Positions 1,580 to 45,296 of a DNA stretch of 64,000 nucleotides are shown piece after piece (position 1 is the first letter of the stretch; every line of letters starts with the position of its first letter). The position numbers and the translations under genes were made by a program. Origin of the DNA: Escherichia phage Mangalyan; sequence record OR449013. One strand, written 5' to 3'. Below the pieces are notes generated by a model. That model was not told where the DNA came from, ran no database searches, and saw only the letters and a program-made list of their open reading frames with translations.

Positions 1580-1930
1580 CTAACCAGTTGTTGACATCCG
1601 AATAACTTCTTCTGGTGGCAAAACTTTGGAAAATGTGCATCTTTTACCTCTCCCTTGTGTGGATGTTTCAACCACTCCTGCACATTCTAAAGTTTTAACG
1701 CACGCTGCTGCTTTTGTTTTCTTTATCCCAACATCTGCTGCAATTTTCCTTGTGCTTGGTGTGAAGCGTGAATTTCCTCCAAGCTTATACCAGTTGTGCA
1801 GGTAGCAGTATACGATCTTGTCATACAAGTCAAGAACAACAACCTCCCCAGTTGTGTCATTCAAAACTTTTGACATAGATAGTATTTCAAGGGGGACTTT
1901 AAGATATAGCAGCTTATCCCCATCTTTCAT
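1580..1930 (-). CDS. hypothetical protein, possible helix-turn-helix DNA-binding protein
   Basis: 116-aa ORF; segment RKIAADVGIKKTKAAACVKTLECAGVV looks like an HTH region; gene ends beside the palindrome array. Confidence 0.45.
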   Translation of the reverse strand: MKDGDKLLYLKVPLEILSMSKVLNDTTGEVVVLDLYDKIVYCYLHNWYKLGGNSRFTPSTRKIAADVGIKKTKAAACVKTLECAGVVETSTQGRGKRCTFSKVLPPEEVIRMSTTG

Positions 1931-41966: not shown

Positions 41967-42087
41967 AGCACCGAGCCCACACAGGTTCCTCATGCTAAAG
42001 CATGGCCTGAAGAGGCAAACGTGTATAATTCCTGTGCATTAGAACGTATAAAACCCTGTTCACACTTTCATTCCCAGAGGAGATTTT

Positions 42088-42303
42088 ATGAAGATAGAGA
42101 TATTTGGTGGAGCTGACAACACTCGTGGCCTGATTTACCTTGAATTCGATGAATCATACCTGCCAGAGGTGTTAAATATGGACTCTGTTGCTGAGGCTTT
42201 GGGAGTAAGTCCTAAAGATCTCCACTCTGGTGCTGAGATTGATGGTTGGGAGGAGACCATGAACATCGATTTCAGTGAAGTAGGGGATGAACCACTGGAC
42301 TGA
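42088..42303 (+). CDS. small acidic protein (71 aa), MKIEI-type
   Basis: ATG after CAGAGGAG; last rightward gene. Confidence 0.55.
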   Translation: MKIEIFGGADNTRGLIYLEFDESYLPEVLNMDSVAEALGVSPKDLHSGAEIDGWEETMNIDFSEVGDEPLD

Positions 42304-42430
42304 CACACAATTAGTTGCCCGGCTAAAGTGCTGGGAGCACCCATAACACATCTTTCAACTAAATTTTCTACCACCACAATCACTTACCTCCCACACATGA
42401 CTGTTTGCTTGTTTAGTGAGCAGTCATGCC

Positions 42431-42458
42431 TTGACATTCTTGCCTATCCTGATAAAAT
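42431..42458 (+). promoter_or_regulatory. candidate sigma70-like promoter at entry to ORF-free zone
   Basis: TTGACA 42431-42436, 16-bp spacer, TAAAAT 42453-42458; no ORF downstream. Confidence 0.4.
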
Positions 42459-42654
42459 TAAGTTCTTCTCTTTTCTTTTACCGAGTAATTCGGGTTTTCT
42501 GTTCTCTTCGGTTTGAAGGGGTATGGAGATACACCTGAGTGAACAGGGTGAACAACCGAACCATTGGCTATGGCATTAGCATGGCGAAGCGGACGGGTGA
42601 CGAAAGAGGGGCCGGAGGACACCAGTCACTGCCATATGATATATGGGTGATAAC

Positions 42655-43193
42655 CTGAAGAGTCTGAATAAGTGTTTAAGTACCAGTCAGAGGAAAAGGT
42701 GAATGGTAGCCGAAGGGGGAGGGGGGTTACCTGCTTCTGTAAACATGCATCTGAAATACTACTTTAGATAACCTGAACCTGCCTTTCTGACAAATATTCC
42801 CTATTAAACTTGAATTATTTATAGAAAATACCACAACACCACTTAAGTCTTTGATTTTACACACAAATCTTACAGATATTAAACCTCTCTATTTAACATA
42901 CCTGTAACATATACTATACTCCACCTGTCTGATCAATTTCCCCAACTACATCCCCATATTTTCCCTGTCTGTACTACCCCTGCCCCGCCGGGAGTCCCGT
43001 CATATCTGGCTTTCCAGCAAATATCACACCCACAAATATCATCACCTGAAGAGGGTTTCATCCCATAATACATGCCTTACCTGAAGAGCGCTTCATACAC
43101 CACATAAATTTTTTAATTGACCCCCTCCCCGCCGCCGGAGAGGTTGGCTTTTCCCACACAGACCTGGAGAGTCAGCCAGAAATATCTGAAGAG
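42655..43193. repeat. four dispersed copies of about 15-bp motif CCTGAAGAG(G/C)G(T/C)TTCA
   Basis: CTGAAGAG at about 42655, 43046, 43081, 43186. Confidence 0.7.
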
Positions 43194-43750
43194 GGTCTAG
43201 TTCTGCCCTGTCATAAGCGGTAGCGACTGGAGTGCTGCTAGGCGGACGAAATGGGAATACTTCTCATTCTTATAACAATTCTCAAATATCGAGGCAGTGA
43301 GGCAAATTAATAGGTGAGGCCGTTCACACAGTGGCACAACATTTGCAACCTATCTTGTGGGATTGAATGAGAATACCTATCATTGTGAGAACTGTTATCA
43401 TTACGGGCAATTTAACATAATACCCATTATGCGCACCACTGGCGATACATACAGGGATTGATAACATGGGTTACTGTTTACGCACATAACAATTATATTT
43501 CTTACTATTTGTGTGGGATATAGTTAGCAGCCGATAGATTAGATATTAACCTGCAGACTTCTGACCGTCCAGACGTCTAAACGCCCACACACCAAGGATT
43601 ATACATACACTCCTGAATGTAAACAGGGCCGCAAAAATGCTACCATACAAGCTTGTAAATTTTTCATGCAGCACTTGACAAAGAGGAGAAAAACTTGTCT
43701 GACATAATGTGACCTAACTGACACAACATGACACTTTTACACACCTATTA

Positions 43751-43820
43751 GTTTACACACTGGATTGTTTACATTCCTGATTGTTCACATGCTAACCATT
43801 TACATGATTGACTGTTTACA
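43751..43820. repeat. iteron-like array: five copies of GTTTACA (variants GTTCACA, ATTTACA) at 15-16 bp spacing
   Basis: copies starting about 43751, 43767, 43783, 43798, 43814. Confidence 0.75.
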
Positions 43821-43833
43821 CACCGATAATCAG

Positions 43834-44083
43834 CCATGCCATTCGTTTGCATGACAATAATTATACATGACAATAATCGCACTGATCATAATTAGCATGA
43901 CATAATATAAAAGCAGGGCAACTATTAGCAGATCTATAGTTGCCTTGCTTGTTATGTCATGATTAACTAAATACAAGGCAACTATGATCTGATTAATAGT
44001 TTGCAGACAAACTATCACGGGGGTGATGGTTACTGCTTTTATATTATGTCGCGACTCCGTCGCGCCATGCCATTCGTTTGCAT
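43834..44083. repeat. direct 19-bp repeat CCATGCCATTCGTTTGCAT (two copies) flanking inverted repeats GGCAACTAT / ATAGTTGCC
   Basis: 19-mer at 43834-43852 and 44065-44083; palindrome arms at 43917-43925 / 43936-43944; second related palindrome about 43977-44005. Confidence 0.7.
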
Positions 44084-44697
44084 AGTTGCCTTATTGTTAC
44101 AGATAAAATAATTGTATTGTTAATTATTTCTTATCTTTCTATTAGTCATCTAATGATTTCAGTTAATATAGTAACGTACAGTAAACATTAGACGACTAAA
44201 GATTTCTATGCTTATGGTAACCTAACGTGACAATTCCAGACTGTTTACGAAAAATGTTGACACCTGGGCCGATTTATGTTATGCAGTTTACACGAATAAT
44301 TATTTTATGCAGGTATTGACTATTCCGTTATTCTATGGTTGGAATAAATGCTTAGCAGGCTATAGAATGGCGAGCGTACGTAAATTCTGAGATCTGGCGG
44401 CTATAGTTATACTCGATTTTTCACGTAGAAAACGCTTTTGTAGTTATGTAAGTGTATGACTTATAAAGTTGACAAGCTATTGAATATATGCATCAGGTTA
44501 AATTTTGTGCAAATGCTGCATTACGTGCAATTTTGGAAGGAAAAACGTGTAAAAATGGCCCTGCTACCACACAATGAAAAATTATGCAATAGTTATTTTA
44601 TATGTATGTTTGTACAGTGTGTGGGATTGATGGCTCGTCAATTATTCCACTTGCCAGGTAGGGCCGTTTATGGTAGGGGGAAGAGCAGACAAAAAGA

Positions 44698-44715
44698 AAG
44701 GGGCCTAAGCCCCTT
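44698..44715 (-). terminator. rho-independent terminator for leftward transcripts
   Basis: AAGGGGC CTAA GCCCCTT; on minus strand followed by UCUUUUUGUC. Confidence 0.65.
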
Positions 44716-44733
44716 GATAATTCAGTTAAAAAA

Positions 44734-45153
44734 TTATAATGATTCGTATATTTCAAAAATCCGATTTGCCAGGTCGTTACGGTAGCGGAATTTTTCCTCG
44801 CGTTTGATCATAAGATCTTTATAGCCGTACTCTTTAAGCACTTCATTAACTTTATGGCGGCATACTTTCATATTATCCTGCGCGTCACCAATAAATCTGT
44901 TGCTATGGTGCATGGCTTTAATTTCTTCTTCCAGGACCAGGGCAACTATGCGGACCGGATCAAGCTGATAGGCGGTAACATCCATGCGGCATTGTAGACG
45001 GCTTTTAACGTCTGCCACCGGATATACTGCAACCTCTTCCCCGTCAACATTGACAATAATTAGTTTACCATCGATTTCGAATCCTTTCGCCGCCGGACCG
45101 TGACAAAAAGCGTTATCAAAGCTATATGCCGGATTATTAGATTTAATGTTCAT
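44734..45153 (-). CDS. hypothetical protein (139 aa)
   Basis: ORF followed by terminator. Confidence 0.55.
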   Translation of the reverse strand: MNIKSNNPAYSFDNAFCHGPAAKGFEIDGKLIIVNVDGEEVAVYPVADVKSRLQCRMDVTAYQLDPVRIVALVLEEEIKAMHHSNRFIGDAQDNMKVCRHKVNEVLKEYGYKDLMIKREEKFRYRNDLANRIFEIYESL

Positions 45154-45296
45154 GGTGTTTTTACCTCTTAGTTAATTTTCTTACAACTCCCCTTCAAAAA
45201 AGAATATAGCAAAACTGCCGATCCCTGTCAACCAGGGATAGCATAATTTTTATGTGATCAAGGGGCTTTATTACCCCCTGACCGTAACTTGTTGTA

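Follow-up and report, generated by a model that had tools for sequence, protein, structure and literature searches.

Genomic setting and the genome end

The repeats described here lie in a gap of about 2.5 kb free of genes (about 42300-44730 of the window, as delimited from annotated relatives; by the window we mean the whole analysed stretch of 64,000 nucleotides of Escherichia phage Mangalyan). The gap is flanked by plus-strand genes on the left and by minus-strand genes on the right, therefore transcription converges on it, and the cumulative GC skew has its maximum, not its minimum, at the gap and the array. The genes adjoining the array encode small hypothetical proteins for which no Pfam match was found. 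The segment 43300-44500 is matched by 119 phage records at 80-99% identity, all of which are rV5-like myoviruses of the genus Vequintavirus, with MaxBurger (98.2%) and nomo (97.8%) as the best matches.

In fact, this gap contains the end of the virion DNA. The record of Gotham (MT682716) has a 459-bp repeat_region annotated at both of its ends, and these two copies are identical and align to 43241-43699. In LL12, a direct terminal repeat (DTR) of 459 bp, non-permuted, has been reported by PhageTerm at 104966-105424 (PMC6658697), and these coordinates correspond base-for-base to the same interval of the window. At the left boundary the window reads ...GTGCTGCTA|GGCGGACGAAATGGG..., and LL12 reads ...GTGCTGCCA| followed by the identical GGCGGACGAAATGGG, with a difference of one base outside the boundary; the right boundary is the same in both, namely ...GAGGAGAAAAACTTGTC|TGACA.... 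Moreover, several independent records (EdH4, HdK5, ECP2309, YN3, bov10K2 and bov22_2) either start at the same boundary base or have a DTR copy at each end. The DTR is found in 119 records at 90-99% identity and in 127 matching places, so that a few records contain two copies; no nucleotide match to it was found outside Vequintavirus, and a scan of IMG/VR with a DTR-end pattern gave two extra loci only. One Vequintavirus has been interpreted by PhageTerm as headful-packaged, in conflict with the DTR model (PMC13211470); we give this reading little weight, since neither termini nor repeat coordinates are stated there.

With the DTR mapped in this way, the unique DNA at the left genome end opens, at its very first base, with the first of the two repeat arrays, R1, and the second array, R2, follows 33 bp further in. 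The features of the gap are collected in Table 1.

Table 1. Features in and around the terminal gap, in positions of the window (R1 and R2, the two repeat arrays; DTR, direct terminal repeat)
Feature	Position	Strand	Description
Dispersed repeats left of the DTR	42650..43201	+	(A/C)CTGAAGAG, starting at 42650, 43044, 43079 and 43184; CCTGGAGAG near 43162
Hypervariable stretch outside the left DTR boundary	43200..43240		GACCTACAGGAG-type repeat indels in relatives
DTR	43241..43699		459 bp, at both ends of the virion DNA; Gotham repeat_region and published PhageTerm DTR of LL12
Isolated R2 copy inside the DTR	43473..43483	+	ACTGTTTACGC
Isolated inverted R2 copy inside the DTR	43612..43628	-	CCTGTTTACATTCAG on the minus strand; 75 bp from the right end of the DTR
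R1 array	43700..43734	+	TGACATA at 43700, TGACCTA at 43710, TGACACA at 43719, TGACAC at 43729; period 9-10 bp
R2 array	43732..43821	+	six units of 15-16 bp; core ACTGTTYACRY, variable spacer of 4-5 nt
Two perfect 20-nt direct repeats	43833-43852, 44064-44083		GCCATGCCATTCGTTTGCAT; a 211-bp insert lies between them; the first one closes the variable array zone as its conserved right anchor
Back-to-back terminator-like hairpins	43899..44050		within an 18-nt perfect inverted repeat, right of the array
AT-rich block	44091..44170		82% AT; second most AT-rich 80-mer of the window; right of the array and left of the R2 copy at 44240
Two further R2 copies	44240..44293	+	ACTGTTTACGA at 44240, CAGTTTACACG at 44283; TTGACA hexamer between them at 44258

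Anatomy and statistics of the two arrays

The original prediction described five GTTTACA-type copies at a regular spacing, and these were confirmed, GTTTACA being exact at 43751, 43767 and 43814, with GTTCACA at 43783 and ATTTACA at 43798. A sixth unit, TTTTACA at 43735, had been missed. The TTYACA hexamers of the six units thus start at 43736, 43752, 43768, 43784, 43799 and 43815, and the start-to-start spacing over the units (43735-43820) is 16, 16, 16, 15 and 16 bp. The two outlying copies that had been noted exist as well, as ACTGTTTACG at 44240-44249 and GTTTACA at 44286.

The count of GTTTACA in the whole window is near chance (18, with 10.3 +/- 3.3 expected). A chain of at least five copies of any 7-mer at a constant period, allowing at most one mismatch and a fixed period of 9-30 bp, appeared in 1 of 60 and in 0 of 500 dinucleotide-preserving shuffles of the window (1/560 together); a looser test without periodicity, which asked for at least five copies within 90 bp, was passed by about 20% of the shuffles and is alone not significant. 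The clustering of R2 together with its periodicity is thus beyond chance, and the abundance of the motif in the window is as such unremarkable. In the 136-kb genome of MaxBurger, 6 of the 28 GTTTACA copies fall inside the 2.5-kb terminal gap, where 0.51 would be expected; with this local enrichment of about 12-fold, the objection foreseen with the original prediction, that the motif might be no more frequent here than in the genome as a whole, does not hold. Moreover, the sole major R2 cluster of that genome (6 hits per 250 bp) and its sole R1 cluster are both in the terminal gap, and of three minor R2 clusters with 3 hits each, two are outside it. Tandem Repeats Finder reported nothing at the array, because the R2 units are only about 75% alike.

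To describe the unit, 53 R2 units from nine genomes were aligned. Positions 0-5 of the core were preset by the regular expression used in the search, and therefore only the flanking positions count as evidence. Among these, the A at position -4 is present in 47 of the 53 units (1.33 bits), and C/T, T and G at -3 to -1 as well as C/T at +6 reach 0.5-0.8 bits; the spacer positions have 0.02-0.3 bits. Of the 44 spacings measured in these genomes, 31 have a length of 15 or 16 bp, and the rest are mostly double steps or spurious short hits.

Besides the array, the single R2 copies at 43473 (+), 43618 (-) and 44240 (+) keep their core in all six of the genomes aligned. For example at 43473 six divergent genomes all have the TTTACGC core unchanged, and variation is limited to the fringe (T/A at the third core base, C/T just past the core); at 44240, GTTTACGAAAA is kept in 6/6 aligned genomes with varying fringe bases, and the copy at 44283 is less conserved.

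As for R1, inspection of 12 genomes showed it in each case to open the unique DNA at the corresponding base, with an invariant first TGACA, and its units (TGACAYA) follow a period of 9-11 bp across the relatives.

Two observations concern the right boundary of the DTR itself. The boundary 43699|43700 adjoins the centre of a 9-bp palindrome, TGTC-T-GACA (43696-43704), and it lies 24-25 bp downstream of CTTGACAA plus a purine-rich motif; the same motif is found at the same distance from the boundary in Klebsiella phage KPP-1.

Variation across species and related genera

The gap was aligned over six divergent genomes, namely the window, Murica, rV5_ev147, FV3, A142 and EmilHeitz. The identity to the window is 0.88-1.00 over most of the gap, and it dips just outside the DTR boundaries, to 0.64 at 43200-43249 on the left, and to 0.52-0.68 at 43700-43849 and 0.32 at 43850-43899 on the right; other dips, which are not at a DTR boundary, are 0.80 at 42700-42749 and 0.61 at 42750-42799. 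Database-wide, 43600-44100 finds 48 records down to 60-80% identity. The flanks of the DTR are thereby the most variable noncoding DNA of the genus.

What changes in the variable zone is the copy number, with the motif and the period kept. R2 has a single copy in bov10K2 and EmilHeitz, two in LL12, six in the window, nomo, Alma and Gotham, 8-9 in Murica and A142, and about 10 in rV5_ev147 and one IMG/VR contig; R1 has from 1 to about 8 copies across the relatives. Nomo, Gotham, LL12 and Murica belong to one species, Vequintavirus murica, despite their differing R2 copy number. The zone has invariant ends, which are the first TGACA on the left and the (GATAA)GCCATGCCATTCGTTTGCAT anchor on the right. 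The second copy of GCCATGCCATTCGTTTGCAT closes the 211-bp segment, and in FV3 only one GCCATGCCATTCGTTTGCAT copy is present and the segment between the repeats is absent; either the segment has been lost there by deletion from one repeat to the other, or it entered elsewhere as a small insertion that duplicated its target. Inside the segment, the T-run belongs to the minus strand for the hairpin at 43911-43950 and to the plus strand for the one at 44010-44031; the annotations of Alma and Murica mark the hairpin as a terminator.

On the other side of the DTR, the left-side CCTGAAGAG repeats are dispersed at irregular spacing (35, 105 and 391 bp) and are accompanied by 40 hypervariable bp. In MaxBurger, 4 of the 16 genome-wide copies of CTGAAGAG are in the gap. 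The (A/C)CTGAAGAG repeats may be regarded, in a loose sense, as the counterpart of the right-side arrays.

Outside the genus, Klebsiella phage KPP-1 (genus Mydovirus, same subfamily) has a 514-bp DTR with T7-type packaging according to PhageTerm (PMC9862379). The boundaries of its DTR are recognisably homologous (...GTGCTA|GACGGAC... and ...CTTGACAAGGAGAGAGAATTGTGTT|...) and the DTR shares internal motifs such as AATGAGAATAATTAT, and no R1/R2 array was found after the DTR of KPP-1. In the Phapecoctavirus Mt1B1_P17, which has a 328-bp DTR preceded by CATGGCA repeats, there is no clean array, and only loose, low-complexity, T-rich repeats with a 15-bp period follow the DTR. By this comparison the arrays are probably a genus-specific accessory whose multi-copy state is dispensable. 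In particular, a multi-copy array is dispensable for the formation of the DTR, since only one R2 copy is present in bov10K2 and EmilHeitz and only two in LL12, in which the DTR has been measured.

Such a variation raises the question of whether the array as a whole does anything. It might be a largely neutral minisatellite, in which one functional R2 site beside the GCCATGCC anchor, the one kept by every genome, has grown into more copies and shrunk again through slippage or unequal recombination, the chromosome end being prone to recombination, and in which the extra copies have no array-level function. The range of R2 from 1 to about 10 copies, even within Vequintavirus murica, agrees with this, as do the confinement of the variability to the DTR flanks and the sister genus without any array. 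However, in the 53 units the core is far better conserved than the spacer, and neutral duplicates would be expected to decay evenly; moreover, the period of 15-16 bp is kept across lineages, and a different adjacent array, R1, behaves alike. We regard a largely neutral amplification of one functional site as the strongest rival to the function proposed below, and rather unlikely.

Transcription, coding and structural signals

In a scan of 3 kb for sigma-70 promoters, 11 sites were found with 9.6 expected, none of them at the array, and a check by hand gave no -10 element 16-18 bp after any of the TTGACA- or TTTACA-like hexamers. An E-value scan of 42000-45200 against Rfam gave no match, and 43690-43835 folded as single-stranded DNA has no structure (z = +0.52). 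A coding array was considered and rejected: only ORFs of 37-41 aa overlap it, and the unit indels, being a mixture of 15 and 16 bp, are not multiples of 3.

The units have also a likeness to regulatory sites, and they could be bound by a transcription or host factor, as operators of a phage regulator, as half-sites of the OmpR/PhoB family or as -35-like decoys of RNA polymerase. TGTTTA is the PhoP half-site, and we take GTTTACA to resemble the OmpR half-site and TGTCA, read on the minus strand of R1, to resemble that of PhoB. The cores of R2 and R1 are indeed similar to the -35 hexamers TTTACA and TTGACA and to winged-helix half-sites, and the copy at 44240 is just upstream of a perfect TTGACA. 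But the missing -10 element at the right distance from any unit speaks against promoter or decoy sites, no gene follows on either strand before the terminators, and the R2 motif does not occur at other intergenic regions. The period is also a poor fit, as 16 bp does not agree with the 10-11-bp spacing of tandem dimers in the OmpR/PhoB family. We consider sites for such factors very improbable. Host PhoP, OmpR and PhoB boxes were rejected by spacing: response-regulator half-sites repeat at 10-11 bp and R2 repeats at 15-16 bp; R1 has a period of 9-11 bp, but its match to the half-sites is loose and its register drifts.

Comparison with phage T7 and with cos and pac sites

The closest parallel in layout is found at the left end of phage T7. 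In the T7 record, a terminal repeat of 160 bp is followed by 13 heptamers of the CCTAAAG type at 12-13 bp, beginning at nt 175, and looser CCTAAAG/CCTAAGG copies precede the right-hand repeat. Dunn and Studier in 1983 reportedly named this array SRL, of the pair SRL/SRR. A short direct terminal repeat, non-permuted, is common to the two genomes (459 bp here), and both have, in unique DNA and 0-15 bp from the repeat boundary, an array of cores of about 7 nt, with 13 units in T7 and 4 + 6 units here; the six R2 units share with the T7 type at least five copies of such a core at a spacing below 20 bp. In both, looser repeats are found across the repeat, here only dispersed and at irregular spacing, and an AT-rich or promoter region just inside the array. 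However, the motifs are unrelated (CCTAAAG in T7, TGACA and TGTTYAC here), and the likeness is an analogy of layout, not a homology. Moreover, unlike T7, the present phage has motifs of two classes, each with its own period (10 and 16 bp), and is a 137-kb myovirus without an RNA polymerase of its own, and its copy number is hypervariable within the genus. The order of the parts is the same in the two phages: the DTR and arrays are followed here by terminators and the AT-rich block, and in T7 the phiOL promoter, at nt 405, comes just past the array. To our knowledge the function of SRL and SRR has never been established and has been unexplained since 1983, and a limited literature search on it yielded nothing usable. 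With their function undefined, the likeness is therefore one of form only and conveys no mechanism.

A second comparison is with the recognition sites of terminases. For the R-elements of lambda cosB, the hexamers of P1 pac, and pacL/pacR of SPP1, binding by the small terminase has been demonstrated, and these sites are essential and stable. The present arrays are similar in being short repeated motifs that lie on one side of, or flank, a terminase cut and would so orient the site, the binding being putative here. They differ in that the array is dispensable in its copy number and is absent in a related genus whose DTR boundaries are homologous.

Is the array a replication origin?

The regular repeats had been described as iteron-like and taken as a sign of an origin or of initiator binding sites. 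The description stands, for the array has an 11-nt core, a variable spacer and a period of 15-16 bp that is fixed genus-wide, and such a combination would fit repeated protein-binding sites in general; the inference of an origin or an initiator finds no support in the context.

As an origin, R2 would provide the iterons for a phage or host initiator, with 44091-44170 as the unwinding element. With iteron origins such as lambda ori, those bound by plasmid RepA and P4 ori/crr, the array shares direct repeats with a conserved core and, some 270 bp away, an AT-rich block, and the type I iteron of P4 ori/crr, TGTTCACC, shares TGTTCAC with some of the R2 units. The regular period with its conserved core, and the conserved R2 copies at 44240 and 44283 beside the second most AT-rich 80-mer of the window, could be read in the same direction, and so could the T7 parallel: phiOL, annotated at nt 405, is also just inside SRL, and we take it to be a secondary origin.

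Against this, typical iterons are 17-22 bp and phased at about two helical turns, and the unit and period here are shorter, at 15-16 bp. The array abuts the right boundary of the DTR, and thus the site is a genome terminus on which transcription converges and at which the cumulative skew peaks. DnaA boxes (TTWTNCACA) are not enriched, with 12 in the window, 8.6 expected and one relaxed match in the array, nor are IHF sites, of which the consensus nearest to the array is at 42844. The AT-rich block is about 270 bp from the array, with two terminators between them, and close relatives have between 1 and about 10 R2 copies, with only 1-2 in some viable ones. Moreover, no cognate initiator gene is known. 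For rV5, a T7-gp4-like primase-helicase and a PolA-type polymerase have been described and no initiator-type protein has been reported, and the skew changes are reported to follow the orientation of transcription (PMC3606486); as replication proteins, the annotated genome and the rV5 paper list only the gp4-like primase-helicase, PolA and a PIF1 helicase. Taken together, an origin at the array is quite unlikely. Annotators should note that this 'iteron' array marks the genome terminus and is unlikely to be an origin. Chi sites were also looked for, and none are present in the window.

Elsewhere in the window there is a set of repeats which looks more like classic operators or iterons than R2 does, and which may be a better candidate for an origin or for a late switch. 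At 1336-1505, four tandem copies of an 18-bp palindrome, TGTCCGTATCACGGACA, occur with a 22-bp period, immediately preceded by the window's most AT-rich 80-mer (1336, 82% AT). They are just downstream of a gene for a 116-aa helix-turn-helix protein (1580-1930, minus strand), which has weak Pfam matches to HTH_36 and DUF6945 and which the MaxBurger record calls a 'putative transcriptional regulator'. In 118 Vequintavirus records this region shows a conservation of at least 80%, and its counterpart in rV5 is at about 65.0 kb, roughly 1.4 kb from the reported skew change at 66.7 kb (PMC3606486).

A possible role at the genome end

Considering the position, the conservation and the variation of the arrays together, we tentatively propose that they are a subterminal, copy-number-variable protein-binding array, analogous in layout to SRL, that may serve as an accessory in end processing or packaging. 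The setting would be the linear, non-permuted, terminally repeated genome of the Vequintaviruses, in which R1 (TGACAYA, period 9-11 bp) precedes R2 and the two together make up the first 120 unique bp inside the left end. R2 would then be a tandem amplification, with a period of 15-16 bp, of an 11-bp protein-recognition core, ACTGTTYACRY. A DNA-binding protein of the phage would load on the array and on the single R2 sites scattered within the DTR and near it; with 16 bp, or some 1.5 helical turns, from one site to the next, neighbours would be on opposite faces of the helix. We infer the binding itself, the identity of the binder and the link to packaging or end processing from these patterns. 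Candidates for the binder are a recognition subunit that resembles a small terminase, or a factor that binds DNA ends; the annotation of MaxBurger lists no small terminase. Once loaded, such a protein would show which side of the concatemer junction is the 'inside', either to direct the cut at 43699/43700 or to guide the handling of that end.

Within this proposal, the comparison of genomes argues that the array is an accessory and not the primary cleavage signal, because the boundaries are conserved into a genus without the array and because viable relatives have 1-2 R2 copies. The primary determinants of cleavage are probably the conserved boundary and the sequences internal to the DTR.

It is tempting to go one step further and to regard subterminal repeat arrays as a general, unnamed class of cis elements in phages with short direct terminal repeats, of which T7 SRL and the R1/R2 of Vequintavirus would be two independent examples. 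In such a class, fast-evolving tandem sites at the first unique bases would load a phage protein that orients the terminase cut, ends packaging or caps the entering end. We consider this generalization unlikely as it stands.

The Vequintaviruses (rV5, LL12, the BASEL Bas phages) are common coliphages of broad host range that are used in therapy cocktails and as models. The placement at the DTR boundary gives a concrete candidate cis element of 120 bp, for which natural variants of 1 to 10 copies exist for comparison, and also a second, experimentally tractable case of the layout of the T7 end.

Further observations in the gap and the DTR

Inside the DTR, TGAGAAYNNTTATCATT occurs twice in tandem with an 18-bp spacing (43368-43402), and in nomo and Alma its annotation is no more than 'repeat_region'. 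The same element recurs within the otherwise unalignable DTRs of the Phapecoctavirus Mt1B1_P17 and the Mydovirus KPP-1, and so does ACAATTCYCAAATATC, located near the start of the DTR. Both are candidates for conserved recognition elements of terminase or packaging.

Further to the left in the gap, about 300 bp of noncoding DNA (42400-42700) are 99-100% identical in six genomes whose flanking genes differ more. The stretch opens with a near-consensus sigma-70 promoter at 42431-42458 (TTGACA-16-TAAAAT with an upstream TG) and contains a small hairpin with a T-run at 42481-42493. Folding of 42464-42760 as RNA is not significant (z = -1.33), and this interval has no match in Rfam. The stretch may represent an unannotated small RNA or another cis element.

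Finally, among the database matches to this E. coli Vequintavirus region there are 18 GenBank records titled 'Campylobacter phage' (MG0656xx, UNVERIFIED and unannotated), with 76-99% identity to it. These records are probably mislabelled or contaminant assemblies of coliphages.
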